The notes beneath the pieces were generated by a model, which was not told where the DNA came from, did no database searches, and saw nothing but the letters and a program-made list of their open reading frames with translations. Positions 3,253 to 56,124 of a DNA stretch of 64,000 bases are shown here, one piece after another. The stretch spans positions 6,737,722 to 6,801,721 of the forward strand of contig OY970235.1 in assembly GCA_963714145.1 (NCBI GenBank), given 5' to 3'. Position 1 is the stretch's first letter. Every line of letters begins with the position of its first letter. Position numbers and translations under genes: made by a program. The DNA is from an uncultured Actinomycetota bacterium (GTDB taxonomy: Bacteria > Actinomycetota > Actinomycetes > Mycobacteriales > CADCTP01).

Positions 3253-3899
3253 TCCGGGTGGTCGTGGCCGACGACCAGGCGCTGGTCCGGGTCGGGCTGA
3301 AGGTGCTCCTGGATACCGAGGACGACCTGGAACTGGTCGGCGAGGCGGAGAACGGGCAGGTCGCGGTCGAGGTGGTCCGGCGCACCCGGCCGGACGTGGT
3401 GCTGATGGACGTCCGGATGCCGGTGCTGGACGGGATCGGGGCGCTCCGCCAGATCGTCGCCGACCCGGCGCTGGCGCACACCCGGGTCGTCGTGCTGACC
3501 ACGTTCGAGCTGGACGAGTACGTGTTCGAGGCGCTGCGCGGCGGCGCCAGCGGCTTCCTGATCAAGGACACCGAGCCGGCCGAACTGCTCCGCGCGGTCC
3601 GGGTGGTGGCCGCCGGCGAGTCGCTGCTGTCGCCGTCGGTGACCCGCCGGGTGATCGGCGAGCTGGCCGCCCGCGCGTCCCGGACGACCACCCCGCACCC
3701 GGAGCTGGGCCGGCTCACCGACCGGGAACGGGAGATCGTCGGCCTCGTCGCGGCCGGTCTGTCCAATGAGGACATTGCCCGGCAACTCGTGCTCAGCCCG
3801 GCCACCGTCCGCACCCACGTCAGCCGGGCGATGGTCAAGCTGCACGCTCGCGACCGGGCCCAGCTCGTCGTCTTCGCGGTCCAGTCCGGCCTGTCCTGA
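3249..3899 (+). CDS. LuxR/NarL-family response regulator
   Basis: GTGA overlap with the kinase stop. REC domain (VVVADDQALVR...DVVLMDVRMP). C-terminal LuxR HTH (LTDREREIVGLVAAGLSNEDIARQLVLSPATVRTHV). Confidence 0.92.
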   Translation: MIRVVVADDQALVRVGLKVLLDTEDDLELVGEAENGQVAVEVVRRTRPDVVLMDVRMPVLDGIGALRQIVADPALAHTRVVVLTTFELDEYVFEALRGGASGFLIKDTEPAELLRAVRVVAAGESLLSPSVTRRVIGELAARASRTTTPHPELGRLTDREREIVGLVAAGLSNEDIARQLVLSPATVRTHVSRAMVKLHARDRAQLVVFAVQSGLS

Positions 3900-4349
3900 T
3901 CGACCGTCCGGACCGTCCGAGCTGACCGAACCTGACCGGACCCGTCCGGATCGGATCGTGCGGACGGGACGGATCGGACGGACCGGACCCGCGGCTCCAG
4001 CCCGGAACCGGACGAGCCGGTCCGGTTCGCCGCCGACCCGGGTCCGCTGCCGGCCCGGCGCGGTCGATCGAGGGCAAGACGGACGACACCCGGCTAGCCG
4101 GCGGGCAGCCGAACGCGCCGGACCTCGTCCCGTCCTACCGTGGCAGCACACCCCGGCTCGGGGTGTCCTGGACCGGCGCCCCGGCTCGGTCCACCTGGGT
4201 TTCCGCGCCGGTACGGCGGTCGACGTGTTCGGCCCGCCGTTTGCTGGCGGCCCCGGTCGCGCAGACATCCGGGGCCAGCCGGCACCGCGTCGCGCCGGAA
4301 CCCAACAGCACCACCGGCAGGAGGCTGATCATGGCAGTGAGCCACGTCC

Positions 4350-4847
4350 TTGCGAACCCGTGACCCCATGGCCGACCCGTCGCCGGCCGGCGGCCGGGTA
4401 CCGATCCCGGACCCGACGCTGCTCACCACGGAGGCGCTGCAACGGGAGATCGCGCACCTCCGCGAGCTGCTGACCGCCCAGATCGACGACGTGCGGCGGC
4501 AGATCAACGAGGCCGACCTGCGGTACCAGCAGCGGTACGAGGCGCAGACGAAGGCGCTGGACGCCGCTCGGGTGGCCGCGGACACGGCCATGCAGGCGGC
4601 CCTGGCGGCGGCGGAGAAGGCGGTCTCGAAGGCCGAGGCCGCCGCCGAGAAGCGGTTCGACGCCGTGTCCGCGCGGGTCGACGACCTGAAGGAGGACTCG
4701 GCACACACGTTTGCCGGCATCCAGGTCCAGCTGGCCGGGTCGGTCGGCCGCGGGGCGGGGCTGAGCGCCGGCTGGGGGTACCTGGTCGCCGGGGTCGGGC
4801 TGGTCGCCGCCATAGTCGCGATCGTGCTGGCGGTGCTGCCACAGTGA
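4350..4847 (+). CDS. hypothetical coiled-coil protein with C-terminal TM anchor
   Basis: 165 aa ORF with an Ala/Glu-rich helical middle and the hydrophobic tail GWGYLVAGVGLVAAIVAIVLAVL. An alternative ATG start lies at 4368. Confidence 0.5.
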   Translation: MRTRDPMADPSPAGGRVPIPDPTLLTTEALQREIAHLRELLTAQIDDVRRQINEADLRYQQRYEAQTKALDAARVAADTAMQAALAAAEKAVSKAEAAAEKRFDAVSARVDDLKEDSAHTFAGIQVQLAGSVGRGAGLSAGWGYLVAGVGLVAAIVAIVLAVLPQ

Positions 4848-4924: not shown

Positions 4925-6043
4925 TCAGCCGGGCGGCTCGGCCGCGACCGCTTCGGCGATCTCGACGGTGTTCAGCGCGGCGCCCTTGCGCAGGTTGTCG
5001 CCGACCAGGAACAGCTCGAGCGTGTTCGGAAAGTCCAGTGCCTGCCGGATCCGGCCGACGTAGGTGGCGTCCGTGCCGACAGCGTCCGCCGGGGTGGGGA
5101 AGATGCCTGCCGCGGCGTCGTCCAGCACGACCACGCTGGGCACCGCCGCCAGCGCGGCCCGGGCCGCCTCGACGCTGACCGGACGATCGAACGTCGCGTG
5201 CACGGCGACCGAGTGCGTGGTGACCACCGGCACCCGGACGCAGGTCGCCGACACCGCCAGGCCGGGGATGCCGAGGATCTTCCGCGATTCGTTGCGGATC
5301 TTCAGCTCCTCCGAGGACCAGCCGGCGTCGCGCGCCGAGCCGGCCCAGGGCACCACGTTCAGCGCCAGCGGCGCCGGGAACGGCGACTCGTCCGGCAGCC
5401 CGGCCGAGGCCAGCGCCTTGCGCACATCGCCGGCCACCTGGCCGACGGAGGAGTCGCCACCGACCGCGGCCAGCTCCGCGTACAGCCGGTCGACGCCGGC
5501 CTGACCGGCCCCGGAAGCGGCCTGGTACGACGCCGCCACCAGCGCGGTCAGCCCGAAGCCGCGGTGCAGCGCGCCGAGCGCGACCACCATGGCCAGGGTC
5601 GTGCAGTTCGGGTTGGCGATGATGCCGCGCGGCCGGTTCCGGATCGCGTCCGGGTTCACCTCGGGTACCACCAGCGGCACGTCCGGGTCCATCCGGAATG
5701 CGCCGGAGTTGTCCACCACCACCGCGCCGCGGGCGGCCGCGATCGGCGCCCACTGCGCCGAGACCTCGTCCGGGACGTCGAACATGGCGACGTCCACGCC
5801 GTCGAACACGTCCGCGGCGAGTGCCTGTACCGGGACCTCGACGCCGCGTACCGGCAGCAACCGACCGGCCGAGCGCGGCGAGGCGATCAGCCGCACCTCA
5901 CCCCACGGGTCCGGCCGGACCGCGGCCCGCTCGGTCAGGATGGACAGCAGCACGCTGCCGACCGCGCCGGTGGCGCCCACCACCGCGAGGGTCGGCCGGC
6001 GGGCCGCCGCCTGCCCCGCGGCCCCCGGCCGCGGCCCGGTCAC
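4925..6043 (-). CDS. asd: aspartate-semialdehyde dehydrogenase
   Basis: [17 protein letters not shown]-binding motif, IIANPNCTT active-site region, full-length family similarity. Proposed GTG start makes a GTGA overlap with the ask stop. The track ORF extends further 5' inside ask and that part is rejected. Confidence 0.9.
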
Positions 6044-6558
6044 CGCCCGGTCCCGGCGTAGACGGTGGCCTCCACGTCGCCGCCGAGGTCGAACGCGTCG
6101 TGCACAGCGTTCACCGCCGACCGCACGTCCGAGTCGCGGCAGACGATCGAGATCCGGATCTCCGACGTGGAGATGATCTCGACGTTCACCCCCGCGTCGG
6201 CCAGCGCGCCGAAGAACTTCGCCGATACCCCGGGGTGCGAGCGCATCCCGGCACCGATCAGCGAAACCTTGCCGATGTGGTCGTCGTACAGCAGCGAGTC
6301 GAAGCCGACCGAGCCCTGCACCTTCTGCAGCGCGGCCATCGCGGTCGGACCGTCGGTCTTCGGCAGCGTGAACGAGATGTCGGTGCGCGAGGTGGCCGCC
6401 GCCGACACGTTCTGCACGATCATGTCGATGTTGATCTCGGCGTCGGCCAGGCAGCGGAAGATCGCCGCGGCCTCGCCCGGCTTGTCCGGCACGCCGACCA
6501 CCGTGACCTTGGCCTCGCTGCGGTCGTGCGCGACACCGGTGATGATGGCCTGTTCCAC
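6040..6558 (-). CDS. possible in-frame aspartokinase beta subunit (internal start)
   Basis: Internal GTG at 6558 (V250, [20 protein letters not shown]) is preceded by GAGGA about 7 nt upstream. Corynebacterial and mycobacterial lysC encode a nested beta subunit at this position. This is inference. Confidence 0.4.
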
Positions 6559-7305
6559 GGGCAGATCCTCCGTCGAGCCGATGACCAGCGTGCCGTCCTG
6601 CTGGGTGAAGGACGAGCGGACGTGCACCGGGATGCCGTACCGCCGGGCGTACTCCACGCAGCGCAGCATCAGCACCTTCGCGCCGCATGCCGCCATTTCC
6701 AGCATTTCCTCGTAGGTGATCCGGTCCAGCCGGCGGGCCCGGGGCACTATCCGCGGGTCGGCGGTGTAGACCCCGGCCACGTCGGTGTAGATCTCGCAGA
6801 CGTCCGCGCCGAGCGCGGCGCCCAGGGCCACCGCGGTGGTGTCCGAACCGCCCCGGCCCAGCGTAGTTATGTCCTTTGTGGACTGTGAGACGCCCTGGAA
6901 ACCGGCCACGATGGCGATCGCGCCGCCGTCCAGCGCGGCGCGGATGCGGCCGGGCGTGATGTCGATGATCCGGGCCTTGCCATGCGTGCTGTCGGTGATC
7001 ACACCGGCCTGCGAGCCGGTGAACGAACGCGCCTCGAAGCCGAGCGTCGAGATCGCCATCGCCAGCAGCGCCATCGAGATCCGCTCGCCGGCGGTGAGCA
7101 GCATGTCCAACTCGCGCCCGGACGGCAGCGGCGAGACGTGTTTGGCCAGGTCCAGCAGTTCGTCGGTGGTGTCTCCCATGGCCGATACCACGACGACCAC
7201 CTCGTGCCCCAGACGCCGGGTAGCGACGATGCGCTCGGCCACCCGCTTGATCCGCTCTGCGTCCGCGACCGACGAGCCGCCGTACTTCTGTACGACGAGC
7301 CCCAC
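6040..7305 (-). CDS. lysC: aspartokinase (alpha subunit reading frame)
   Basis: 421 aa. [44 protein letters not shown], and two C-terminal ACT domains. Classical ask-asd operon order. Confidence 0.95.
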
Positions 7306-7590
7306 CCGGACCCTCCTCGTTCGTCCTGACCAGATGCCGTCGCCAGCCTACCGGCCGGGTCGGAACCGCCCGACTCGTTAAGCCGGCCGGAGTCGGGCCG
7401 GAACCTGGGGGCGGGCGGCAACATCGCAGGGTCCGACGACGTCATTCCACCGACCAGCGGACCCGGCACCGAGCCCGAACGGCGGTGTCGCGGCAGGAGG
7501 ATAGGTTGTGCCGATGACCGTGCCGCCCGGCGGCCTCCTCCGCTACTGGTCGCTGGGGCTCGCTGCGATGCTCACTCCGGAGGCCACCTC

Positions 7591-8574
7591 ATGACTGAGC
7601 CGGACGTTCTCGGCAGTGAGCCGGCGGCCGACGCGCCGCCACCCGGGGCAGCGCAACCGGGGGTGTGGGCCAGAGGGGTGCGCCGGTCGTTCGGCCCGGT
7701 GCACGCCGTGCAGGGCGTCGATCTGGACGCGCCACCCGGCCAGGTGACCGCGCTGGTCGGCCCGAACGGCTCCGGCAAGACGACGCTGCTGCTGGTGCTG
7801 GCCACGTTGCTGAGGCCGGACGCCGGCGACGTCCGGGTGGCCGGCTTCGACCCGATGACCCAGTCCGACCAGGTGCGGGCCCGGATGGGCTGGTCGCCGG
7901 ACGTCTTCGGGCTCTACGACAACCTCACCGCCCGGGAGTACCTGGAGGTGATGGCCGCCGCGTACCGGGTACCGGTGGCCGCCCGGACCGAACGCGCGGA
8001 CTACCTGCTGCAACTGGCCCGGCTGCCGGAGAAGGCGGACATGCCGGTACACAGCCTGTCCCGCGGGCAGAAACAGCGGCTCGGCCTGGTCCGCGCGCTG
8101 GTGCATGACCCGACCGTGCTGCTGCTGGACGAGCCCGCCTCCGGGTTGGACCCGCGCAGCCGGTCCGAACTGCGCGACCTGCTGCGACAACTGGCCGGCG
8201 AGGGCCGCACCGTGGTCGTTTCCAGCCACATCCTGTCCGACCTGGAGGAGGTCGCCGACCGGGTGGTGTTCGTGGACGCCGGGCGCACCGTCGGGCAGCA
8301 CGACATCGACGACCTGCCGGCCAGTCAGGCGGTCCGCACCTACCGGCTGCGCGCGCTGGACCTGCCCGGGATGCGGTCCGCGCTGGAACGCTCCGGCTGG
8401 CCGTGCTCCGACGCCGGCCAGGCCGGGCTGGACGTACAGGTCACCGGCGGCGAGCCGGAGGCGGCCCGGCTACTGGCCAGCCTGGTCACCGCCGGCGTCC
8501 CGGTCACCGCGTTCGCGCCCCTCGGCGGCGCGCTGGAAGCCACCTACCTCAACCTGATGGAGGGCCGGTCATGA
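7591..8574 (+). CDS. ABC transporter ATP-binding protein
   Basis: Walker A GPNGSGKTT, signature LSRGQKQRL, Walker B LLLLDEP, H-loop SSHIL. Confidence 0.92.
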   Translation: MTEPDVLGSEPAADAPPPGAAQPGVWARGVRRSFGPVHAVQGVDLDAPPGQVTALVGPNGSGKTTLLLVLATLLRPDAGDVRVAGFDPMTQSDQVRARMGWSPDVFGLYDNLTAREYLEVMAAAYRVPVAARTERADYLLQLARLPEKADMPVHSLSRGQKQRLGLVRALVHDPTVLLLDEPASGLDPRSRSELRDLLRQLAGEGRTVVVSSHILSDLEEVADRVVFVDAGRTVGQHDIDDLPASQAVRTYRLRALDLPGMRSALERSGWPCSDAGQAGLDVQVTGGEPEAARLLASLVTAGVPVTAFAPLGGALEATYLNLMEGRS

Positions 8575-16316: not shown

Positions 16317-16401
16317 GGAGGATTCGCCTAGTGGCCTAGGGCGCACGCTTGGAAAGCGTGTTGGGGGCAACCCCTCAAGAGTTCGAATCTCTTATCCTCC
16401 G
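16317..16401 (+). tRNA. tRNA-Ser (anticodon GGA)
   Basis: Acceptor GGAGGAT/ATCCTCC, anticodon stem CACGC/GCGTG with loop TTGGAAA, long variable arm TTGGGGGCAACCCCTC, T-arm AAGAG-TTCGAAT-CTCTT. CCA is not encoded. Confidence 0.93.
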
Positions 16402-16407
16402 CGTCTC
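16348..16407 (+). repeat. attL core: 60 bp of tRNA-Ser(GGA), from the anticodon loop to 6 bp past the 3' end, identical to 32920-32979
   Basis: cttggaaagcgtgttgggggcaacccctcaagagttcgaatctcttatcctccgcgtctc was read at both positions. Confidence 0.85.
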
Positions 16408-16562
16408 TGACCAGGGCAAACGCCGGCCGTGTGGGGTACGCCGTGTCCCACGGGTGCCGGGTCCGTCTCAGTTCCCGTCTCAGTCGGAGGTTGGGTGCCT
16501 AGACCGTCCAGCCTCGCTGTGGCCGGCCGCAGGGTCGGAGCACCGTCCCGGCGGAGGCCAGG

Positions 16563-17381
16563 ATGAACCGTCAGATCGAAGCAGCACCGCCAGTCGACTG
16601 GCGTGACCTTGAGGAGAGGGCGGCGCGGATCCTCGCGGACTGCGGCATGGAGACCCTGCGTGCGCACAAGATGGCGACGGTCCGCGGCGAAGTCGTGGTC
16701 GACGTACACGCTGTAGATCCGACCACTACTCCTCAGACAACCATCATCGTGGAGTGCAAGAATTGGCGAAAGCGGGTGCCGAAGACAGTCGTCCACGCTT
16801 TCCGGACTGTCCTTGGTGACACTGGCGTCAACTTAGGACTCCTGCTCTCGGCAGCCGGGTTTCAGAGTGGAGCCCTAGAAGCCGCGGCGCACAGCAACAT
16901 TCGCCTACTCGACTGGCGAGCGTTCGAAGAGATGTTCGTCGAGCGGTGGAGACGAGATTGCATGGTACCGAAGGTCCTAGACCAGGCGGAGCCACTGTTG
17001 GAGTACACCGAGCCGGTCAACTTCCGCATCTTTCCGCACCTTGAGGCGCTTCCCCCGACGAAACAGGCCAGATTCTCGGCGCTCCAGGACAAGCACCTTG
17101 CCTTGGCCTATCTCCTGACACCATGGTCTGTCGCGCGATTTCTGAGCCTGCGTCCGACCTCGCGGGTGCCATCGCCGGACCGGCAGCTTGAAGCACTAAC
17201 ACTACCTCTGCGCGAGTATTTGCCAGTCGCTTGGGTAGGCGCTGACGGCGACCGACTCGTGCAGGGCCTGCCAGAGGAAGTTCTCGACGCGAACGCACTC
17301 AGACCCTTGCTGGACGCGCTCCTCGCTAGCATTCGGGCGGCCATAGCTGAATTCGACGAGGTATTCGGAGGGCGTGCCTAA
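16563..17381 (+). CDS. Mrr-like (PD-(D/E)xK) restriction endonuclease domain protein with unknown C-terminal half
   Basis: N-terminal WRDLEERAARILADCGMET...VVVDVHAVD...TIIVECKNWRKRVPKTVVHAFRTVLGDTGVNLGLLLSAAGFQSGALEAA matches the Mrr_cat pattern (D...ExK, then a v..l.g segment, then s.gF). About 150 aa at the C-terminus are unassigned. GC is visibly lower than the core genome. Confidence 0.7.
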   Translation: MNRQIEAAPPVDWRDLEERAARILADCGMETLRAHKMATVRGEVVVDVHAVDPTTTPQTTIIVECKNWRKRVPKTVVHAFRTVLGDTGVNLGLLLSAAGFQSGALEAAAHSNIRLLDWRAFEEMFVERWRRDCMVPKVLDQAEPLLEYTEPVNFRIFPHLEALPPTKQARFSALQDKHLALAYLLTPWSVARFLSLRPTSRVPSPDRQLEALTLPLREYLPVAWVGADGDRLVQGLPEEVLDANALRPLLDALLASIRAAIAEFDEVFGGRA

Positions 17382-17404
17382 CGTCCGCTGTCCGGAGCCG
17401 CGTC

Positions 17405-17795
17405 CAGAATATTTCTCCGACCTGAGCCGCGATGACGCACCGGATCTTGCTGGTCACATGTCGGTAGGGCTTGCCATGCCGGTGTCGGCCCAGCGTATGA
17501 GGGGCATGACGGTGCACTCGGGGACACCGACGACCAGGGAGGACGGTAGCGGCGTTGTGGCGAACGTCGCGCAGGCGGGGCGGCGCGGGACTCGGGTCGT
17601 GCGGAGGAGTCGTTTTCTAGTCGTGGTAGTCGGTGCTGGGGCCGACCGCTTGGCCGGTGGGTGAGGTGATGACCCAGTCGCTTTCGCACCAGAGCGGGGC
17701 GACGGGCTGACGCTCGCGGTCCTGCGCGACGCGGTGGGCGCGCAGAACCTCGCCAGCTCGTCAGGTAGGCCGACGACGCGGCGGCCATTGCCGGA
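17405..17795 (-). pseudogene. remnant of a second tyrosine integrase (C-terminal catalytic part only, frameshifted)
   Basis: About 360 nt align by eye at roughly 70-75% identity with 18480-18850 of the intact int gene (e.g. tcgtggtagtcggtgct, ccggtgggtgaggtga, gctcgcggtcctg). The coding sense is split between two track frames (17454-17957 and 17378-17788). Confidence 0.75.
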
Positions 17796-17822
17796 GGCCG
17801 ACGGTCGAGCGAGTATCAGCAA

Positions 17823-18377
17823 ATGTCGGCGAAGTGTCCCCGTGCGCCCGCTGAGCTCGCTATTGTGATCGGCATGGGCTACAGAATGACTGGCTTCAGC
17901 GCCTTCGGCCTTGGCGTCGAGTGGGAGAAGGTTCCAGGCGACGAAAAGGTGGCACACCGCGTGATCGCCTACCTTGAAAATCGACGGCTATTGTTCGGAT
18001 CGCGCCATTCCAAAGATCAGGACCACTGCGTCGCCTCGGCGATCGAGATTCGCAACTATCTGACGACCGAGCTTGGCTTGACCAAGCAAGGCAGCAGCCT
18101 GTCCATGAGTCTGCGCGCGATTCGGGCGGCCTGCCGGCAGTTCGTGGAGGCAGGTGGGCCGCGCGGACGGAACTTCCTCGGAGACGCGCCCTGGGACGCT
18201 GGGCCCTTTGGTCTCGCTCTCGGCGACCTCCGGACTCTCGTTGGTTGGCAGGTGGCCACGATCGCAGGCGAGTACGAGATCGAGGTCGAGCCCGAACTCG
18301 CCGCGATCATGCCGCCTTCGTTGGACTCTGACGAGGATGACCCGTCGTGGCTACCGGGCTTCGAGGACCAGACGTGA
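17823..18377 (+). CDS. hypothetical protein (no recognisable domain)
   Basis: 184 aa ORF; the start is more likely the ATG at 17874 (MGYRMTGFSAFGLGVEWEKV). Its stop lies 1 nt from the convergent int stop. Acidic C-terminal tail. Confidence 0.5.
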   Translation: MSAKCPRAPAELAIVIGMGYRMTGFSAFGLGVEWEKVPGDEKVAHRVIAYLENRRLLFGSRHSKDQDHCVASAIEIRNYLTTELGLTKQGSSLSMSLRAIRAACRQFVEAGGPRGRNFLGDAPWDAGPFGLALGDLRTLVGWQVATIAGEYEIEVEPELAAIMPPSLDSDEDDPSWLPGFEDQT

Positions 18378-18378
18378 C

Positions 18379-19659
18379 TTAGCTGTCATCGCTTGCACCC
18401 TCTTCTCCGTCGGCTGCGTCTTGAGCCTTGTCGTCCTTCACCGGCCTGGGTGCCCATAGGAGCCCGCCGACCTGCCCCGCGATGTCGTGTCGGACTTGGC
18501 TCGTGATGTGCTGGTAGCGCTTGGCCAGGCCGGTGTCTGCCCAGCCCATCAGTGCCATGACCGCCCGCTCAGGTACACCGAGGATCAGCAGGACCGTGGC
18601 GGCGGTGTGGCGGGCGTCGTGCAGGCGAGCGTCGCGGACTCCGGCGACGCGGAGAAGCCGTTTCCAATCGTGGTAGTCGGTGCTCGGGTTGACCGGCCGG
18701 CCGGTGGGTGAGGTGAAGATCCAGTCGCCGTCGTGCCAGAGCTGGCCGGCGAGCTGGCGCTCGCGGTCCTGTTCGTCGCGGTGGATGCCCAAGAGCTTCA
18801 CCAGCTCCTCGGGTAGACCGATGGCGCGGCGGCCGTTGGCCGATTTCGTGTTGCCGGCTTCCGACCGGATGAGCCGGCGAGCTGGGCAGTAGCCGGCGCG
18901 GTCCCGGTCGCACTTCCCGTCGCAGCCGTGCTCGTACTTCGGACGGTTGCGGCTCCGGCGGACGAAGAGCGACGCGTCGTCGAGGTCGACGTCCGGCCAG
19001 CGGAGGCCGAGCGCCTCGCCCTGACGGAGGCCGAGCGCGAGCGCGACCGCCCAGCGGACACCGTTTCGCCGCTCCGCGGCGGCGGCCAGGATGCGCTGAA
19101 CCTCGTCGACCGTGTACGGCTCGACCTCGGTCTCGGTCAGCCGAGGCGGCTTCGCCAGCTCGGCTGGGTTGATCGTGATATGGCCACGACGGACCGCTTC
19201 GCCGAGCGCGGTACGGATTGTGCGGTGCGCCTGATGGGCCGTGGCCGGCGAGCTGCCCTTGGCCTGCATTCGCTTGTAGAGCTTTTCGAGGTGTTCCGGC
19301 TGGAGCTTGTCGAGGCGGTGCGCGCCCACGCCGGGGATGAGGTGGACGCGGACGGCGACCCGATAGCCAGCGAGCGTGTTCTCCGAGATGGACGGCGCGG
19401 CGATCTCCTCGACCCAGTGGTTCAGCCACTGCTCGACGGTCGAGGGGCGGCCGGGTTTGCGTACGTGGCCGGAGTCGCGCTGCTTCTCCAGCTCGCGCAC
19501 CTTGCGGTACACCTCGGTCCGTGTCTTCGCTTCGACGTGCCGACGGTCCGGCTTGCCGTCGTCGCGCGTTCCCATCGTGACCCGGCCGTGCCACTTGCCG
19601 TCCTTGCCGAGGTAGATCGAAGATGCGCCGTTCGGAGCGCGGCCCTTGTCGCTAGGCAT
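18379..19659 (-). CDS. int: tyrosine-type site-specific integrase
   Basis: 426 aa. N-terminal SAM-like/core-binding domain. Catalytic region LALGLRQGEALGLRW...HDARHTAATVLL...VMALMGWADTGLAKRYQH contains the R..HxxR..Y elements. Confidence 0.92.
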   Translation of the reverse strand: MPSDKGRAPNGASSIYLGKDGKWHGRVTMGTRDDGKPDRRHVEAKTRTEVYRKVRELEKQRDSGHVRKPGRPSTVEQWLNHWVEEIAAPSISENTLAGYRVAVRVHLIPGVGAHRLDKLQPEHLEKLYKRMQAKGSSPATAHQAHRTIRTALGEAVRRGHITINPAELAKPPRLTETEVEPYTVDEVQRILAAAAERRNGVRWAVALALGLRQGEALGLRWPDVDLDDASLFVRRSRNRPKYEHGCDGKCDRDRAGYCPARRLIRSEAGNTKSANGRRAIGLPEELVKLLGIHRDEQDRERQLAGQLWHDGDWIFTSPTGRPVNPSTDYHDWKRLLRVAGVRDARLHDARHTAATVLLILGVPERAVMALMGWADTGLAKRYQHITSQVRHDIAGQVGGLLWAPRPVKDDKAQDAADGEEGASDDS

Positions 19660-30881: not shown

Positions 30882-31238
30882 ATGGCAGACAACTGGTACC
30901 AGGGCAACGCCGCCGCCGAGAACGACCAGCACCGCGGCTGGTTGCTCGGCCACTTCATCGACGGCGAGGACGCCACCATTCGCAAGACCAACGCCCTCGA
31001 AGTCAAATGGGGAATCCACAAGGCCGGCGAGGAACGCCCCGAATGGACCACCGGCGAAGACCGCACAACCCTCTTCATGCTCATCAGCGGCAAGTGGCGC
31101 CTAGACCTCACCGTCGGCACCTTCACCCTTGACCGCCCCGGCGACTATATCGTCTGGGGACCCGGCATCGACCACTCCTGGCAAGCCCAGGCCGACAGTA
31201 CCGTCCTAACTATCCGCTGGCCTTCGAGCCAACTGTAA
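30882..31238 (+). CDS. small cupin-like protein
   Basis: 118 aa starting 2 nt after the preceding stop. A beta-rich sequence with G.Y...GPG..H.W; cupin assignment from pattern only. Confidence 0.45.
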   Translation: MADNWYQGNAAAENDQHRGWLLGHFIDGEDATIRKTNALEVKWGIHKAGEERPEWTTGEDRTTLFMLISGKWRLDLTVGTFTLDRPGDYIVWGPGIDHSWQAQADSTVLTIRWPSSQL

Positions 31239-31330
31239 CGCAGCGTGGACGACAGAACTACTGACATGTCAGCCAATGAACACACATCAGAGGTCCGGCG
31301 AGGTAATTGCGCTTCGCTATGAAGACTGAC

Positions 31331-32575
31331 CTACTGTCCGCCATGCGACACGACATAAGGAGGCCGCGCTTGGGTTCGGCCATACGGGTAGCGATCCGCG
31401 ACCGTTGACAGATACCGATCGACCGCTTCGATGTCTCGGAAGTGCTCGTGCTTATAGTTCGGAAAGTTGTCCACTCGCGGCTTCTTTGTAACACTCAGTC
31501 GAACATCCTGAAACGGAATGGGATCTGAAGGCAGTGGCCCCGCACCGGAGAGAACGAGGCACATCACCTGCTGGGCGTCGGTTCGTGTTGTCAAATTGTA
31601 TATTCGATGCATCCCATCAATTATCACCAATGTACCATCGGGCTGCCGTTCAACAATTGGCGGCAGAACCACCGTGCGATTGCCGCTGCCCTCAACTCGA
31701 CACGGCTCAAAGAACTCTAATCCGAACCGTTCATATCCCTCAAGGAGAGGGGAACCCTTAGCAACGTTCGCGGCCTTTACGGTGCGACAACATGAGTATA
31801 GCGACGCACAAGAAACCATTTCGATAGAGATCGAATTTGTAGTCAAGCGACTGTAGTGCGGAATTCGCGACAGAATATGACGGACTTCGTCCGCATCCAA
31901 TACCAAGCGATCCAAGATCACTCCCGGCGGGAGAGTCTCCCAGACTGAATCGAAAAGCTGGTGCAACATGGCGATGTAGCTCATGTCCCGCCCAGGGAGG
32001 TAGCGGCGAGCATGATAGTCAAATAGGCTGTCCGTGCCGGCCTCTCCTTCAATTAGAGCAATGCGCTGCTTCGGGTGCTTGGTCACGGTAAGCGCAGTTC
32101 CATTGTCAAGGCTAGTCTTCGTGTCGACGACCAGACCCCGCAGCTTTACCATATCTCCGGTGTAGTACTTCACCTGCACGCCGGCCCCGAAAAGAACCCG
32201 AACCTGCTCTAGCAGAATAGGCGTAGAAGGCCACCTACAAAGAACGCGAATTACTACCCCTAGCTGAGTCCGCTCAAGAATCGGATTCTTACTACTCTCC
32301 GCCCAGGAAACATCACCGGCAAAGACCGCCACGGATGAATCCGCCCGGGTGAGGAGCGCGCGCCAAGCCAAGTCGACCGTTCGCTTGCCGTTAAACACGT
32401 TTGCGTCACGGTGGAAAATCTGCACGAAGACCAGCACAGCAAAGGCCGCGAAAGAAATACCGATAAGCAGATAGGACACGGTCGACTGAACGTTGACCAA
32501 CTTGTCAAAAGACATTCCAGTAATACCGATAACAATGCTCGCCCATTGGATGATGTTGGCAACCTTACGGGTCAT
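31331..32575 (-). CDS. low-GC cargo protein: N-terminal 2 TM helices, unassigned central domain, C-terminal ParB/Srx-like (DGxHR) domain
   Basis: ATG at 32575 (MTRKVANIIQW...) with GGAAGG upstream; the track ORF allows a start at 32668. TM helices IIQWASIVIGITGMSF and VSYLLIGISFAAFAVLVFVQIF. C-terminal PPIVERQPDGTLVIIDGMHRIYNL. Composition is clearly A/T-richer than everything around it. Confidence 0.7.
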   Translation of the reverse strand: MTRKVANIIQWASIVIGITGMSFDKLVNVQSTVSYLLIGISFAAFAVLVFVQIFHRDANVFNGKRTVDLAWRALLTRADSSVAVFAGDVSWAESSKNPILERTQLGVVIRVLCRWPSTPILLEQVRVLFGAGVQVKYYTGDMVKLRGLVVDTKTSLDNGTALTVTKHPKQRIALIEGEAGTDSLFDYHARRYLPGRDMSYIAMLHQLFDSVWETLPPGVILDRLVLDADEVRHILSRIPHYSRLTTNSISIEMVSCASLYSCCRTVKAANVAKGSPLLEGYERFGLEFFEPCRVEGSGNRTVVLPPIVERQPDGTLVIIDGMHRIYNLTTRTDAQQVMCLVLSGAGPLPSDPIPFQDVRLSVTKKPRVDNFPNYKHEHFRDIEAVDRYLSTVADRYPYGRTQARPPYVVSHGGQ

Positions 32576-32919
32576 CAGCCTTCCACTTCTCAGCATGCCA
32601 TGAACCAGCCCAAGCCAGGATTCACCCTCATCAAGGTGATCGAACCGAACCCCCGTTCGCCGCCACACCCTTGGACCTGGGTGACTCTAGCGTCAGTTCT
32701 GCTACCTCGTCGGTCGCCCTCACCTGATCAGCCCGAGCGATGGGGGGATCGTCGGCGTCTCCAACGCTGCTCGCCTGCCACCTACGCCACACCTCGTCGG
32801 CCGGTCCGTCTCAGTTCCCGTCTCGTTCGTCTCAGTCCACTGGCGGCCGGACAGGACCGCGGTTGGCCGGCCAGCGCTTGCCAGCACGAGACGGACCGCC
32901 ACGGACGGCGCGGAGCAGA

Positions 32920-32979
32920 CTTGGAAAGCGTGTTGGGGGCAACCCCTCAAGAGTTCGAATCTCTTATCCTCCGCGTCTC
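32920..32979 (+). repeat. attR core (exact 60-bp copy of the tRNA-Ser(GGA) 3' part; no tRNA 5' half)
   Basis: Identical to 16348-16407. Confidence 0.85.
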
Positions 32980-33279
32980 CGATCAGGCACGATGCTCAAT
33001 CCTTGGACCGCTGCGATCCTTGGAGCGCGAGCCCGTCTCAGTTGAGCCGACGGCACACCAGCAGTCTCGACGTGCTCGGCACTCGTGACCCGCGGGCGTC
33101 ACGGCCGGCTAGCGGCGGTGTCGGTGGCGGGCCGATGACCTGCCGCCGAGTGCCAGCGTCCGGTCGTCGCCGTCGACTGGTGCTCCACCCGGCCGCTCTA
33201 TCCCGGTTTGCGAGGTTGTGCTGGCGGCCCGGCGCGGCCGGGCTGTCGTCAGCGCGAGCCGGTGAGGCATCCTGGGTGG

Positions 33280-33597
33280 GTGAGTCGGTATGCGGAGGCG
33301 AAGCCATACGCGGTGCCGAGGTCGCTGTCCGACCTGACCGGGCCGACTGGCGGCACCGTCGTGCTGCCCCGACACATCGATTGGGGCCCCGCATATGTGT
33401 ACGACCTCGCAGATGAGTCAGATCTGGCTCTTCTCTACGAGCGGGTGATCCGGGAGGCCCAGACCCCTGATGATCTCACCGCCTTCCTGGACGGGGCGAC
33501 GCTGCGCCGGCTGTGGCCCACGCTGATCGTTCCCCGGCCGGCCCGCGCCAGGTGGGAGGCACGTTTCGAGGAACTGGCCCACCAAGCGGTCGCGTAG
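33280..33597 (+). CDS. putative antitoxin partner of the AbiEii-like nucleotidyltransferase
   Basis: GTG at 33280 (VSRYAEAKPYAVPRSL...). Its TAG stop overlaps the GTG of the downstream gene (TAGTG). No domain recognised; the call is by position only. Confidence 0.4.
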   Translation: MSRYAEAKPYAVPRSLSDLTGPTGGTVVLPRHIDWGPAYVYDLADESDLALLYERVIREAQTPDDLTAFLDGATLRRLWPTLIVPRPARARWEARFEELAHQAVA

Positions 33598-34253
33598 TGG
33601 ACGAGTTCCATCAACGCCTGATCCGGATCGGCTTGGACGCACTGGCCGTTGACGACGGCTACGCGCTGGCCGGCGGCTACGCCGTCCAGGCACACCACTT
33701 CATCGACCGCCTCAGCGACGACGTTGACCTGTTCGTGCCCATAGAACGCAAGCATGAGATGCCGACCGCGACTGCTCGAATCATCGCAGCATACGACCAG
33801 GCCGGGCTTCGGGCGCAGATTCGCCAGCACGCCGATACCTATGTACGCCTCGATGTCACCGATCCGGCGATCGGCCGTACCGTCAAGGTCGAACTCGTCG
33901 CAGAATTCCTCATGAATCCACCCGTCCCGTCCGATCTCGGCCCCGTCCTGCACCCAGACGACGTTGCCGCTGGAAAGCTTGAAGCGCTGTTCACCCGCGC
34001 CGAGGTCCGTGATTTCATCGACGTGGACGCCCTACTGCGGGGCGGATACAACCGGAGCCAGCTCATCGAGCTGGCTAAACGGCGCGACGCGGGCTTCGAT
34101 GAATCAGTCCTCGCGGACATGTTTGCGAGCCTGTACCGTCTCAACGATCGCCAGTTCGCCGTCTACGGGATAGACGCAGCCGCCATCCAGGAGATCCGCG
34201 ACCAATTCAAGAGCTGGCAACAAGATATCCGCGACCGACTCAAGAACAGTTGA
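33597..34253 (+). CDS. nucleotidyltransferase AbiEii/AbiGii-family toxin (DUF1814)
   Basis: 218 aa. ALAGGYAVQAHHFIDRLSDDVDLFV (NTase G..(x)n..DxD) and the C-terminal helical region are typical of type IV TA toxins. Confidence 0.75.
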   Translation: MDEFHQRLIRIGLDALAVDDGYALAGGYAVQAHHFIDRLSDDVDLFVPIERKHEMPTATARIIAAYDQAGLRAQIRQHADTYVRLDVTDPAIGRTVKVELVAEFLMNPPVPSDLGPVLHPDDVAAGKLEALFTRAEVRDFIDVDALLRGGYNRSQLIELAKRRDAGFDESVLADMFASLYRLNDRQFAVYGIDAAAIQEIRDQFKSWQQDIRDRLKNS

Positions 34254-45281: not shown

Positions 45282-45369
45282 GGTGGAGTCGCCTAGTGGC
45301 CGAGGGCGCACGCCTCGAAAGCGTGTGAAGTGCAAGCTTCCGTGGGTTCAAATCCCACCTCCACCGCCA
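45282..45369 (+). tRNA. tRNA-Ser (anticodon CGA), CCA encoded
   Basis: Acceptor GGTGGAG/CTCCACC, anticodon stem CACGC/GCGTG with loop CTCGAAA, long variable arm, T-loop GGTTCAAATCC, 3' GCCA. Confidence 0.92.
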
Positions 45370-45459
45370 CCCTGACCAGCGGAAACGCCGGCCGGCCCAC
45401 CCCGGGCCGACCGGCGTTCGCGCGTCTGGTCTCAGTTTCAGCATGGCTTCCGGCCGGCC

Positions 45460-46263
45460 TCATGACGGACATGCGCCGCCCGTGACAGGGCAAAGCATGA
45501 CGTCGTACGGTTCGGAGAACCGGTCCAACAGCCGCCGATGGTCAGGCCAGTCATGTCGACACCAGCGCGCCACGCAGAGCACGGTGACCTTCGCTGCTCC
45601 CGCGGTACGAACCGCCAATGCCGCCGACTGCGCCTTGCAGCCTGACGTCCATGTGTCGTCCACCAGGAGAACGCTCTTGCCCCGGATCCGTTCGGCCTGC
45701 CCTGATGCGACGACGAAGCGGTCGGCGAGGACCGCCCGGCCGTCCTGTTGCAGGCGCAGGCCGCATTCAATCAGGAATCGCTGCTCGGGCGTCATTCCCC
45801 ATACATTCCTAGCAAGTTGAGCAACCGGGTGGTTCGGCCCAGGCCAGGTCGCGGATGGGACGAAGCTGACGGCGGTCCACGGCGTGCCGAGAGCTCGCGC
45901 CGCGCACGCCGCATGAACCCCAGTCGCCGCCAACACCATGAGAGCCAAGTCCGCGGCCGCCTTCTCGGATGGCGGCTGCGCCTTGTAAGCACGCATCGTA
46001 AACGCGGACTGGTGGTAGCCAGGCGCGTTTCCACGTGCGTACGCAAGCGTCAGCGCAAGATCAGCCAGTCGCGGCCCGAATTGGTCGGACTGTTGCTGGC
46101 ATTGCGGACAGAGGTGCCGGTCTGCCGGCCCTCGACAGCCGGCACATGACAACCCCGGCACGAAGTTTGTGTTGTGGAAGAAACCGCCGACGCGATCACG
46201 TAGCAAGATGCGAAGATCCGATTGCGCCTCGTCGGAAATCACTGCTTCGCCAGGGTCAGCCAC
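45460..46263 (-). CDS. ComF-like phosphoribosyltransferase (zinc ribbon + PRTase)
   Basis: N-terminal CAGC...CPQC ribbon. C-terminal PRPP-binding loop SVLLVDDTWTSGCKAQSAA. Overlaps the upstream DprA-like gene by 25 nt. Confidence 0.8.
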   Translation of the reverse strand: MADPGEAVISDEAQSDLRILLRDRVGGFFHNTNFVPGLSCAGCRGPADRHLCPQCQQQSDQFGPRLADLALTLAYARGNAPGYHQSAFTMRAYKAQPPSEKAAADLALMVLAATGVHAACAARALGTPWTAVSFVPSATWPGPNHPVAQLARNVWGMTPEQRFLIECGLRLQQDGRAVLADRFVVASGQAERIRGKSVLLVDDTWTSGCKAQSAALAVRTAGAAKVTVLCVARWCRHDWPDHRRLLDRFSEPYDVMLCPVTGGACPS

Positions 46264-47246
46264 CGATCGACCTGTGCCTCCGATTCCAGAATCTCGGCGA
46301 CGGCATCCAGCGCATGCTCGGCGGTCCGAATGACGCTCACACCGGGATTGCCGACCATTGCCCGTCCCCAGCTCGTCGAGTCGACCACGGTCTGGGAAAG
46401 CAACACGGGACGGCCGTGCTCGACCGCCAGGCGGGCCTGGATCCGGGCTCCGCTAGTCTCCCCTGCTTCTACGACGATCGTTGCCCGGCCGTACGCGCTC
46501 ATCACGGCATTGCGCATGGGAAACGAGTGTTTGGTCGGCGGAGCGGACGGCCAGAACTGCGACAGCACGAGACCATCCTCGCCAATTCGATGCTGGAGCG
46601 ATGCGTTCGCCGCTGGATAGCAACGTTCGATACCGGTGCCGATCACGGCTACCGTGCGGCCACCCGCCTCCATCGCTGCGCGATGGGCGGCAGTGTCGAT
46701 GCCTAGCGCCAAACCCGACACGACCGACAATGAGCGTTCAGCCAGTCCTCTGCTGATGTCGGTCGCGAGCGCCACCCCTCGATCAGAGGCATCCCGTGAG
46801 CCGACAACGCAGACACCGACATCGTCGCCCGTGAATCTGCCGTAGCTGAACACCACTGGCGGCATCTGATGGACGTCGCGAAGACGGGAAGGATAGCGGG
46901 CGTCCATGAACGTCAGGAAGTCAAACGACGCGCTCTCCCAGCGACAGACATCCGCCCGGGCCTCTACCAGCACAGGGTGATCATCAGCGATAGGATCGAA
47001 GAGGTCACCCGTCACGGTGCGGGACCAGACCTCACGCGCACTGCCCGCCTCGGCGACCAGGGCCGTGATCTCCGGCCAACTGAGGCGCTCGGGACGTGCC
47101 CGCAGCAACGCAACCAGCGCTGCCCGCTCCTCGCCGTCCCGATCGGCACCCACGGCGCCCAGCCTACGGTCTCCACCCCACGAACGACTGACGACGGCGC
47201 CCGGTGACCAGGGATCCGTCGAACGGGCTGCCCGACTGCCTGCCAT
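46239..47246 (-). CDS. DprA/Smf-like Rossmann (SLOG-type) protein
   Basis: VCVVGSRDASDRGVALATDISRGLAERSLSVVSGLALGIDTAAHRAAMEAGGRTVAVIGTGIERCYPAAN...FPMRNAVMSAYGRATIVVEAGETSGA is the DprA core. Confidence 0.85.
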   Translation of the reverse strand: MAGSRAARSTDPWSPGAVVSRSWGGDRRLGAVGADRDGEERAALVALLRARPERLSWPEITALVAEAGSAREVWSRTVTGDLFDPIADDHPVLVEARADVCRWESASFDFLTFMDARYPSRLRDVHQMPPVVFSYGRFTGDDVGVCVVGSRDASDRGVALATDISRGLAERSLSVVSGLALGIDTAAHRAAMEAGGRTVAVIGTGIERCYPAANASLQHRIGEDGLVLSQFWPSAPPTKHSFPMRNAVMSAYGRATIVVEAGETSGARIQARLAVEHGRPVLLSQTVVDSTSWGRAMVGNPGVSVIRTAEHALDAVAEILESEAQVDRWLTLAKQ

Positions 47247-47266
47247 CGCGACACCACCCTCGAACT

Positions 47267-47282
47267 TCGAACGTATGTTCGA
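47267..47282. promoter_or_regulatory. LexA (SOS) box, actinobacterial type TCGAAC-N4-GTTCGA
   Basis: TCGAACGTATGTTCGA, both hexamers perfect, 21 nt upstream of the DprA-like ATG (47246). An extra TCGAAC half-site lies at 47260-47265. Confidence 0.7.
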
Positions 47283-47585
47283 TTATACCTTGGCGAATCG
47301 ACCGACAGCAGTGGCGCACCTCGCGGCGCCCCCACCGTCTGGTTGCCCCTCCTGGACGATCTCGCTCAAGCCCGCCGTCGTGGTCACGCAGACCGGTGCC
47401 GACTGGCCGCCCTGCGTGGTGTACCGAGGCGGTCGGCGGCTGTGCATTCGGCCGGGGTCGGGATCCGCCGCCGGCCGGTTAGCTACTGCTTCACCCAGAA
47501 ACGTGACATCGTGATCGGGCCGGTTGCCGGTCGTACGACGGCCGGAATAATTGGCCAACGTCGCTTGACGCGGCAATAGCTGGGT

Positions 47586-48353
47586 TTGTCGAAGCCGCTC
47601 GCCTGGGTAGCGACCCGGGGCGGGGCGGCGGGATCTGACATGGTGGTCGGTATGGTGGATTCCGGCCCGGCTCGGCCCGCGCTGTCCAGGTCTGGGCATG
47701 ATCTTGATGTTGGCGGCACCGGGCCCGGTGCCGCTGGTTGGCTGGCGGTCACCGCGACGGCATACGTTCTGCTCCATCATGTCGGCACCGCCCTCGGCTG
47801 GCTCGGCAGCGTTGGTCTCACCCGATGGGCGGACTGGGTGGATCTCGGCACGCCGTACGCCGTGGTGCTGTCCGCCGGAATTGGCCTGGCCCGCTCCGGG
47901 CGGGCCGGTGCGTGGGTGTGGGGCGTCTATGCGGTCGGGGCGGTGACCTACGTCGAGGGGCACGGAATCCATCTGGCCGCGAACTCGATCGGCAATGTCG
48001 CACCTGGGCCGGCTGCGCATTTCTGGGACGAGACGGCCGGCCATTACCTTTGGCAGGCCGGCTGGATCCTGGTGCTCGCCGCGTTGACCGCGGTGTTCGC
48101 CGGCCGTCCCGCACCGCGGGGGCCCTGGCCCTATTGTCTGGCGGCCGCGTTAGGCGTGACGGCCGCGACAAATACGCTGGAAGGTGGCACGGCAGCGCTC
48201 GGCCTCTTGTCGGCTCTCGCCTTTGTCGCAGCCGGCTGGATGACACGTCGCGGAACCGGGCGCCTGCTCCTGTTGGCGTACGGGCTCAGCTTGTTGATCC
48301 TGGTCGGCTACGGGCTCTGGCAGCAGGGCTTCCCGCAACCCTCGCAGCTGTAG
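47586..48353 (+). CDS. hypothetical polytopic membrane protein
   Basis: About 7 hydrophobic helices; no motif recognised. The start may be at 47640. Confidence 0.5.
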   Translation: MSKPLAWVATRGGAAGSDMVVGMVDSGPARPALSRSGHDLDVGGTGPGAAGWLAVTATAYVLLHHVGTALGWLGSVGLTRWADWVDLGTPYAVVLSAGIGLARSGRAGAWVWGVYAVGAVTYVEGHGIHLAANSIGNVAPGPAAHFWDETAGHYLWQAGWILVLAALTAVFAGRPAPRGPWPYCLAAALGVTAATNTLEGGTAALGLLSALAFVAAGWMTRRGTGRLLLLAYGLSLLILVGYGLWQQGFPQPSQL

Positions 48354-55107: not shown

Positions 55108-56124
55108 ATGACCATCGTGCTGCCCGAGACCATTGCCCGCGCCCAGACCCTGGTCGAGCCGGTGCTGCGGCAGGCCGTCGACCGGCTGCCGGAGCGGCCC
55201 CGGCTGATCGCCGGCTACCACCGCGGCTGGTGGGACGCCGAGGGCCAGCCGGTGACCAGGGGCGCCGGCAAGGCGATCCGGCCGGCGCTGACCGTGCTGT
55301 CCGCGGAGGCCGCCGGCGGCCCGGCCGAGCTGGCGCTGCCGGCCGCGGCGGCGGTCGAGCTGGTACACGACTTCTCGCTGCTGCACGACGACGTGATGGA
55401 CGGCGACACCGAGCGCCGGCACCAGCCGGCGGCCTGGGCGGTGTACGGCACCCCGCAGGCGCTGCTGGCCGGTGACGCGGTGCTGGCGCTGGCCGTCCAG
55501 GTCGCGGCCGAGTCGCCGGCGCCGGGCCGGGACGATGCGCTGGCCGCGCTGCTGGAAGCGGTGCACCAGCTGATCCGCGGCCAGTTCGACGACCTCGCCT
55601 TCGAGCCGCGGACCGACATCGAGATGGACGCCTGCCTGCGGATGGAGGCGGACAAGACCGCCGCGCTGCTGGCCTGTGCGGCCTCGATCGGGGCCCGGGC
55701 GCTGGCCGCGCCGGCGCCGCTGGTGGCCGCGCTGCACCGGTACGGCTTCGAACTCGGCCTGGCCTTCCAGCTGATCGACGACCTGCTCGGCATCTGGGGC
55801 GAGCCGGAGGTGACCGGCAAGCCGGTGCTGGCCGACCTGCGCACCGGCAAGCGGAGCAGCCCGGTGGTGGCGGCGATGCGGTCCGGCACGGCGGCCGGCG
55901 AGGAGCTGGCCGGGCTGCTGGCCGACGGGCCGCCGGCCAACGAGGCGGACGTGGGCCGGGCCGCCGCGCTGATCGAGGAGTCCGGCGCCCGGGACTGGTG
56001 CGTGGCCGAGGCGGACCGCCGGCTGGCCGGCGCGCTGGCCGCGCTGGAGGAGACCGCGCTCGCCACCGGCTCCCGGCAGGAACTGGAAGCCGTCGCCCGG
56101 TTCGTCACCGAGCGGGACCGGTGA
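55108..56124 (+). CDS. polyprenyl diphosphate synthase (hopanoid-cluster FPP/GGPP synthase)
   Basis: ATG at 55108. First DDxxD LLHDDVMDGD, second QLIDDLLGIWG. Confidence 0.85.
   Translation: MTIVLPETIARAQTLVEPVLRQAVDRLPERPRLIAGYHRGWWDAEGQPVTRGAGKAIRPALTVLSAEAAGGPAELALPAAAAVELVHDFSLLHDDVMDGDTERRHQPAAWAVYGTPQALLAGDAVLALAVQVAAESPAPGRDDALAALLEAVHQLIRGQFDDLAFEPRTDIEMDACLRMEADKTAALLACAASIGARALAAPAPLVAALHRYGFELGLAFQLIDDLLGIWGEPEVTGKPVLADLRTGKRSSPVVAAMRSGTAAGEELAGLLADGPPANEADVGRAAALIEESGARDWCVAEADRRLAGALAALEETALATGSRQELEAVARFVTERDR

Follow-up and report, generated by a model that had tools for sequence, protein, structure and literature searches.

In this study, we analysed a pair of minus-strand genes coding for a DprA-like protein and a zinc-ribbon phosphoribosyltransferase (PRTase), which lie next to tRNA-Ser(CGA) in a 64,000-nucleotide stretch of DNA from an uncultured Actinomycetota bacterium (contig OY970235.1; the whole stretch is referred to as the window in the following). 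Window positions 45380–47618 form a self-contained cassette of two genes, acquired horizontally and located in a variable slot beside a tRNA gene, with a perfect LexA (SOS) operator upstream of the DprA-like gene. An earlier note on this DNA, made from the letters alone, had described the tRNA and the two overlapping genes with their coordinates, all of which were reproduced by ARAGORN, Rfam and open reading frame (ORF) calls (Table 1); the Rfam scan found the tRNA and no other RNA family.

An insertion beside tRNA-Ser(CGA)

The limits of the insertion could be read from blastn comparison with three relative contigs (L082–L084), found via the tadA-like neighbour, TadA being 99–100% identical. 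They are metagenome-assembled contigs labelled Mycobacteriales bacterium; an exact-sequence look-up with the DprA-like protein of the window gave no match. These contigs follow the window with 98.8% identity from position 56000 to 47619 and then jump directly to window 45379 to 45313, with the junction CCGCCCCGCC/TGGTCAGGG contiguous; the cassette is an indel with respect to them. The 67 nt after the junction comprise the 9-nt 3' flank and the tRNA-Ser 3' half, ending at the anticodon loop, and ARAGORN detected no intact tRNA at that site, the 3' half standing alone as an att-like fragment. In the comparison with related genomes that the earlier note had suggested, the core flank is joined directly to the tRNA-Ser 3' half without the cassette. 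Beyond the junction, the relatives carry unrelated genes, including a TIR_2/Mrr_cat protein, a GntR regulator and a WhiB protein. This alternative island (L082 10606–19833; L083 6468–15695; L084 11214–20441) opens with a diverged tRNA 3' half, the crossover lying at the anticodon loop, and also contains GGDEF genes and several ORFs without a Pfam match; its intact-tRNA end lies beyond the contigs.

In the window, the cassette starts ~9–10 nt past the 3' end of tRNA-Ser(CGA) and consists of the terminator hairpin, the PRTase gene, the DprA-like gene, the promoter and operator, and ~330 bp of upstream non-coding DNA, for which neither a homologue among the collected loci nor a Pfam match was found. 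The hairpin, with an RNA fold of −53.1 kcal/mol (z = −3.0), looks like an operon terminator that could possibly be bidirectional. Both cassette genes have a GC content of 65–66% versus 72% for the whole window, in line with the lower GC content that had been estimated by eye (low 60s), and their GC content at third codon positions (GC3) is 0.71–0.72 versus 0.86–0.94 for the adjoining genes. No integrase and no convincing direct repeat or terminal inverted repeat flanks the cassette, so that the earlier statement on missing integrase and att repeats holds after a repeat search. On an independent contig (L081), which is 92–95% identical, the same operon is joined to the same tRNA, and similarity to the window ends ~60 nt upstream of the −10 hexamer.

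With GTG 46263 as its start, the PRTase ORF overlaps the DprA-like ORF by 25 nt, while an alternative start at GTG 46242 would give a protein of 260 aa and a 4-nt GTGA overlap with the DprA-like stop codon TGA. The latter start is more likely, judged from the gene sequences, since homologous loci show the same 4-nt GTGA overlap.

Table 1. Features of the cassette and its immediate surroundings (window coordinates)
Feature	Position	Strand	Remarks
tRNA-Ser(CGA)	45282–45369	+	ARAGORN; Rfam tRNA 56.4 bits; intact
GC-rich hairpin, 16-bp stem	45379–45423		between PRTase stop and tRNA; inverted repeat; kept in L081
Cassette, indel versus close relatives	45380–47618	-	2,239 bp; blastn versus L082–L084
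Zinc-ribbon PRTase ORF, putative toxin/effector	45460–46263	-	267 aa from GTG 46263
DprA-like ORF, putative antitoxin and RecA/ssDNA-binding partner (ssDNA, single-stranded DNA)	46239–47246	-	335 aa, ATG
Shine-Dalgarno-like GAGGGTG	47255–47261	-	8 nt before ATG; kept in L081
Perfect LexA (SOS) operator TCGAAC-GTAT-GTTCGA = TCGAACGTATGTTCGA	47267–47282	palindromic	consensus match
−10 hexamer TATAAT	47282–47287	-	read from sequence; last base in common with operator
TGTCGGTC element, RecA-NDp-like	47300–47307	-	12 nt upstream of −10
Hypothetical membrane protein, core genome, 237 aa	47640–48353	+	gene calls in relatives L082–L084

DNA-damage promoter elements and distribution of the family

The perfect LexA box that had been pointed out upstream of the DprA-like gene could be confirmed. 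It corresponds to TCGAAC-N4-GTTCGA, the actinobacterial LexA motif (PMC9380542), leaves 20 nt to the DprA-like ATG and is unique in the window as a perfect match, with 0 matches in 100 dinucleotide-preserving shuffles. Read along the gene strand, the region has the order TATAAT-CGAACATACGTTCGA-AGTTCGA-GGGTGG-TGTCGCG-ATG, and from this arrangement a repressor bound at the operator would cover the end of the −10 hexamer and the transcription start. In L081, the N4 spacer is the sole part of the operator that differs, and the −10 hexamer reads TATGAT.

Two further elements of this region were considered and rejected. The extra half-site TCGAAC (47260–47265), which the earlier note had pointed out next to the box, is present; it is not conserved in L081, so that it is probably incidental and no part of the operator. 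The TGTCGGTC element resembles the RecA-NDp promoter (consensus tTGTCRgtg-8nt-TannnT, PMC5656591), which is used by PafBC (PMC6789036). Its spacing of 12 instead of the expected 8 nt and its lack of conservation in L081 make it probably non-functional, and the window promoter does not match the PafBC/RecA-NDp consensus.

The family was collected by a PRTase profile scan with one genome per species, which yielded at least 529 relatives. The best 80 of these were examined; all are from Actinobacteria, among them Actinopolyspora, Pseudonocardia, Nocardia, Amycolatopsis, Saccharothrix, Frankia, Mycobacterium, Thermobifida and Nakamurella as well as Micrococcales and others. The pair is strictly linked, is carried on plasmids and phage and is inserted as a unit: in 79 of the 80 loci, the PRTase gene is immediately preceded by a DprA-like gene on the same strand, and the 146 immediate neighbours (75 loci) fall in 137 different Pfam families, from which we conclude that there is no conserved synteny and that the unit moves as a pair. 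Several loci have the pair next to a tRNA gene, and these tRNA genes differ. Copies are found on 12 actinobacterial plasmids, including one from Mycolicibacterium where genes for a DNA methyltransferase and a DEAD/DEAH helicase precede the pair, and in the Gordonia phages Vasanti and Bosnia. In Vasanti, the pair corresponds to gp30/gp29 and lies in the lysogeny region between integrase/helix-turn-helix genes and tail genes, gp29 being a full-length PRTase homologue with all family motifs. Scanning IMG/VR with the PRTase profile gave no relatives, probably since that scan was limited to set peptide patterns.

Two cases depart from the simple arrangement. A Frankia locus (L010) has two divergent DprA-like genes (3536–4378 and 5065–5913) beside one PRTase gene, and Pseudonocardia endophytica has two separate copies of the pair (L030, L033) in addition to a DprA-like fragment (L033 11649–12176).

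For the 75 loci that could be scored, the best LexA-box match before the DprA-like gene was determined, with size-matched windows from the same loci as controls. It is perfect in 21 of the 75 loci, carries one mismatch in 27 and two mismatches in 7. At most one mismatch is thus found in 48/75 loci versus 12/1,306 control windows; up to two mismatches are found in 63/1,306 controls. The 86 loci contain 23 perfect boxes, of which 22 are located upstream of the DprA-like gene; the sole perfect box elsewhere (L069 8416–8431) is located just past the 5' end of a large minus-strand ORF (5047–8298). Beside the box stands a −10-like hexamer, which reads CATAAT/TATAAT where it immediately precedes the box on the 5' side, the arrangement of the window, and is TACACT-like where it immediately follows on the 3' side; the arrangement with CATAAT/TATAAT followed by the box recurs in Nocardia, Amycolatopsis and Pseudonocardia loci. 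Upstream of gp30, phage Vasanti carries a one-mismatch LexA box, GCGAACAAATGTTCGA.

Among 20 box-less loci, six carry the RecA-NDp motif TGTCR-N3-N8-TAnnnT with the exact 8-nt spacing, at a background of 0.004 per 290 nt, and so does the Mycolicibacterium plasmid copy. Seven box-bearing loci, mainly from Nocardia, also have a TGTCR element in register upstream of the −10 hexamer, and the presence of both elements in the same loci suggests dual control. The SOS wiring that had been proposed for the window is therefore strongly supported by comparison, the box recurring at an equivalent position in the majority of related loci, which span many genera, and in a phage, and the predicted DNA-damage promoter elements are, by their recurrence, kept by selection across genera and replicon types. 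Six loci with neither element (L066, L069, L073, L074, L075 and L080), mostly from Streptosporangiaceae or unclassified metagenome-assembled genomes, with L069 from Pseudonocardiaceae, share a TACGCT/TACCCT hexamer that precedes the apparent start by ~5–10 nt, an arrangement suggestive of leaderless transcripts with a different control.

The two proteins and other genes of the window

The DprA-like protein matches Pfam DNA_processg_A with 1.1e-57, and no DprA winged-helix domain match was found by Pfam. It matches the PADLOC model of ShosA (PDLC03961) with 1.6e-57 and stays below the cut-offs of the DprA equivalog model TIGR00732 (167.8 versus 191.15 bits) and of PRK10736 (145 versus 495). Sequence matches in the PDB include DprA 3uqz (4e-36) and ShosA (2e-21). 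In its AlphaFold2 (AF2) model (predicted local distance difference test score, pLDDT, 89.5), a helical SAM-like N-domain is followed by a Rossmann fold and a C-terminal helix, which corresponds to the ShosA-type layout without a C-terminal winged helix. With Foldseek, the model aligns over its full length alike to DprA 3uqz, DprA 3maj and ShosA 8zva (template modelling score, TM, 0.68/0.73 for ShosA); as far as the model goes, the protein fits ShosA and DprA about equally, and the fold does not separate them. Its absence from near-identical relatives, the sub-cut-off score and the missing winged-helix match show the pair to be an accessory insertion and not a housekeeping dprA, as the earlier note had supposed.

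For the PRTase, an alignment of 61 family sequences revealed four invariant cysteines (C39, C42, C51, C54), which form a CxxC...CxxC zinc ribbon, an invariant or nearly invariant phosphoribosyl pyrophosphate (PRPP) motif [DE]-D-T-W-x-x-G and a conserved C-terminal CPxTGGxCP. In the same alignment, H116 is invariant and C119, C257 and C264 are nearly so, residues which might constitute a second metal site. The protein has the ComF/ComFC layout, with an N-terminal four-Cys zinc finger followed by a type I PRTase fold, and departs from the ~430-aa ShosT layout in being 260–267 aa long and in having the zinc ribbon in place of the hydrolase domain. E. coli ShosT combines an N-terminal pyrophosphatase-like hydrolase domain with a C-terminal PRTase domain, and mutation of its acidic PRPP motif (D331/D332) abolishes toxicity (PMC11961720). 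The best PDB neighbours of the AF2 model (pLDDT 95.7) in Foldseek are H. pylori ComF 7p0h (TM 0.40), then E. coli ShosT (TM 0.33).

At the level of profiles, the matches of the PRTase converge on the PRPP loop. The PADLOC ShosT model PDLC03962 is matched with 1.3e-06 at profile positions 166–215 of 237 alone, and the PsyrT model with 1.6e-4 at positions 632–683 of 689 alone; PDLC03012 scores 0.058. Of the 61 family members, 38 match the ShosT model (best 1.1e-07) and 15 the PsyrT model. PDB chains are likewise matched by sequence at the PRPP loop alone, ShosT 8zvb at residues 323–365 with an E-value of 0.036. Pfam Pribosyltran reaches 15 bits, below its cut-off, and comF (TIGR00201) 19.5 bits versus a cut-off of 233.55, although comF is the NCBIfam model matched by the most family members (26/61), weakly. 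No curated model among the Pfam, NCBIfam and PADLOC models scored covers the family, and because the defence hidden Markov models match the PRTase at the PRPP loop alone, automated annotation probably misses it. The earlier comparison with a defence-associated DprA and PRTase pair is supported, both proteins matching defence-system models, with the caveat that the PRTase is not a typical ShosT and matches the ShosT model at the PRPP loop alone.

The window is rich in defence-like cargo beyond the cassette. A second tRNA-flanking island (16317–19659) begins with tRNA-Ser(GGA) (16317–16402) and continues as a lower-GC stretch (64–66%) with an Mrr_cat restriction-endonuclease-like protein (16563–17381), a DUF6650 protein (17823–18377) and a tyrosine integrase on the minus strand (18379–19659). 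The lowest GC content of the window is found at 31000–34253 (56–58% at 31–33 kb), where a minus-strand gene (31331–32668) codes for a protein with inactive-HKD endonuclease and ParB-CE domains and adjoins an AbiEii-type nucleotidyltransferase toxin gene (33513–34253). On the other side of the cassette, the ATG of the core membrane-protein gene lies 21 nt from the junction, so that cassette DNA now supplies its upstream region; a promoter-like TTGCCG-16-AATAAT is located inside the cassette, before this gene, at 47524–47551.

Interpretation and comparison with known systems

The best reading of the pair is that of an actinobacterial branch of the toxin-antitoxin (TA) or abortive-infection systems built from a DprA-like protein and a PRTase, i.e. 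ShosTA, PsyrTA/RqlHI and the pair from P2 hotspots. That the window holds a ShosTA-related TA or defence cassette which is transcribed under SOS control appears on balance probable to us, and for the pair we infer that LexA binds and that the operon is induced, that one protein is toxic and the other acts as antitoxin, and that the system is active against phages. We propose a model in which transcription would start from the TATAAT promoter, whose −10 hexamer and start site would be covered by the LexA operator, so that the operon should be silent in undamaged cells. RecA filaments on ssDNA, arising from DNA damage, from phage or plasmid replication intermediates or from prophage induction, would then lead to LexA self-cleavage and derepression of the operon, with the DprA-like protein being made first and the PRTase following through coupled translation. 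On the model of E. coli ShosTA, the PRTase would bind PRPP and perturb nucleotide metabolism and replication, which would make it a growth-arresting effector, and the DprA-like protein together with co-induced RecA would counteract it. Disturbance of this balance by infection would result in growth arrest or abortive infection. Co-regulation with RecA would be mechanistically sensible, since the neutralisation of ShosT by ShosA depends on RecA and on ssDNA binding (PMC12961424).

Several observations weigh against this reading. The PRTase has no N-terminal pyrophosphatase-like domain as found in E. coli ShosT, its structural likeness to ShosT and ComF is weak (TM 0.33–0.40), and the ShosT, PsyrT and ComF models match it over ~50 residues of the PRPP loop alone. 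In sequence, its partner resembles S. pneumoniae DprA (128 bits) more than E. coli ShosA (80 bits). No −35 element was found for the DprA-like promoter by consensus scan, the promoter being called from the sequence alone, and ~14/75 loci have neither a LexA box nor a RecA-NDp motif. The genes next to the pair have for the most part ordinary roles in metabolism or regulation, a few being defence genes and integrases, so that guilt by association provides modest and not strong evidence. The searched literature contains no experiment on this family of PRTases and DprA-like proteins.

The ComF-like layout and the similarity to DprA keep the main rival explanation alive, in which the pair is a non-toxic, DNA-damage-inducible module for ssDNA handling or recombination, paralogous to ComFC-DprA, which loads RecA on gapped or incoming ssDNA during SOS and which plasmids and phages carry for their own establishment or recombination. 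Competence DprA (3uqz) is indeed the nearest match of the DprA-like protein by sequence as well as by structure, H. pylori ComF is the top structural match of the PRTase and comF the model that most family members match (26/61), LexA and PafBC regulons contain mainly repair genes, and most neighbours of the pair are not defence genes. We nevertheless consider this explanation rather unlikely, since the pair is patchily distributed and absent from the 98.8%-identical relatives, the variable tRNA slot holds a TIR/Mrr-type gene in these relatives, the phage copy lies in the lysogeny region and the plasmid copy beside restriction-like genes, and the comF match is far below the cut-off (19.5 versus 233.55 bits). 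Furthermore, every experimentally studied pair of a DprA-like protein and a PRTase is a TA or defence system (PMC9122126, PMC11961720, PMC12961424). The same carriage on plasmids and prophage would also fit an addiction module (post-segregational killing) or stabilisation module of mobile elements without an anti-phage role, the chromosomal copy being the stranded remnant of a decayed element at tRNA-Ser. The surroundings of the cassette retain neither an integrase nor an att repeat, the upstream 330 bp are without homologue in the other loci and may be debris, and ShosA is reported to be intrinsically unstable, like addiction antitoxins (PMC11961720). We regard such a role as quite improbable: both genes are intact and 92–95% identical in the independent contig L081 with the same flank, most copies are chromosomal and in unrelated contexts, and simple addiction does not need conserved LexA/PafBC control.

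It has finally to be considered that the genes are an ordinary housekeeping dprA and a neighbouring comF-like gene behind a palindrome that matches by chance, for which the strong DNA_processg_A match and the lack of a second dprA within the 64-kb window could be put forward. The pair is, however, missing at this site in the 98.8%-identical relatives, its DprA-like protein falls below the TIGR00732 cut-off and has no winged-helix match, its GC3 is atypical, and the box, with 0/100 in shuffles, stands at the same position across genera, so that this explanation is in substance refuted and its probability close to nil.

If the pair is a TA or defence system under DNA-damage control, as we prefer to read it, the consequences reach beyond this locus. 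The work on ShosTA tied the DprA-like antitoxin to RecA and ssDNA and left the trigger and the action of the PRTase open (PMC12961424); a family branch under RecA-LexA or PafBC control would be a direct, testable link from the DNA-damage response to a TA or defence module. The actinobacterial SOS and PafBC regulons would further gain a mobile member outside repair, and a Gordonia terrae lysogen of Vasanti offers a tractable carrier of the pair and its LexA box.

ShosTA of E. coli APEC O1 is a type IV TA system with anti-phage activity, in which the toxin is neutralised by its DprA-like partner without being bound by it. The toxin ShosT binds PRPP and disturbs purine metabolism and replication (PMC11961720, PMC12961424). 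The pair shares with ShosTA the adjacent, co-oriented DprA-like and PRTase genes, the SAM-like N-domain and Rossmann fold of the DprA-like partner, the acidic PRPP motif of the PRTase and a functional tie to RecA and ssDNA. It differs in its effector, which has 260–267 aa with a 4-Cys zinc ribbon compared to the 432-residue ShosT chain in the PDB with its pyrophosphatase-like domain, and in its conserved LexA or PafBC-type promoter, the words SOS and LexA being absent from PMC11961720 and PMC12961424. The pair is thus related to ShosTA with a different, ComF-like effector architecture.

A DprA and PRTase pair from P2-like prophage hotspots, to which the earlier note had referred, is indeed reported as an anti-phage system protecting against T7 and lambda (Rousset et al. 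2022, PMC9122126). As in that pair and in PsyrTA/RqlHI, a DprA-like protein is combined with a PRTase-containing partner on mobile elements in variable hotspots, to which the variable tRNA-flanking slot and the temperate phage correspond here. Host clade, domain layout and regulation are different, and the PsyrT model, with 689 positions and a large N-terminal region, is matched here at 632–683 alone. Competence ComFC and DprA (H. pylori ComF 7p0h, S. pneumoniae DprA 3uqz) are the same two protein types and the best structural matches, DprA being the best by sequence as well; the scores are nonetheless far below the family cut-offs (comF 19.5 versus 233.55 bits, dprA 167.8 versus 191.15 bits; TM 0.40 for ComF), and the pair is, in contrast to a competence locus, an accessory insertion with no conserved position.

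With regard to regulation, mobile or TA-type units linked to SOS are known in the imuA-imuB-dnaE2 cassette and in tisB, symE and yafNO of E. coli. A further SOS-controlled TA module is Caulobacter higBA (PMC13384398). Like these, the present cassette is a small unit that spreads with its own LexA operator, with a TA-like pair under predicted SOS control; its gene content is different, and the LexA box is in some loci replaced or joined by a PafBC-type RecA-NDp promoter. In full-text literature searches, no account was found of a DprA and PRTase pair being controlled by LexA, SOS or PafBC.

We tentatively extend the reading to a distinct, previously undescribed class of DprA-PRTase systems, a possibility to which we give less than even weight: a ComFC-derived zinc-ribbon effector would be coupled to host RecA-LexA (or PafBC) as transcriptional sensor and spread together with its operator among actinobacterial chromosomes, plasmids and temperate phages. 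Such a class would also suggest an origin of ShosTA-type defence from ComFC-DprA, the pair that hands off ssDNA in competence. In the TA-type defence systems studied so far, the trigger is the release of pre-made toxin, in contrast to the transcriptional sensing that such a class would use. The DprA and PRTase defence pair and the mechanism of ShosTA are already known, as are SOS-controlled TA modules and DNA-damage-linked control of defence in other bacteria; new here are the different effector architecture and the conserved DNA-damage wiring.

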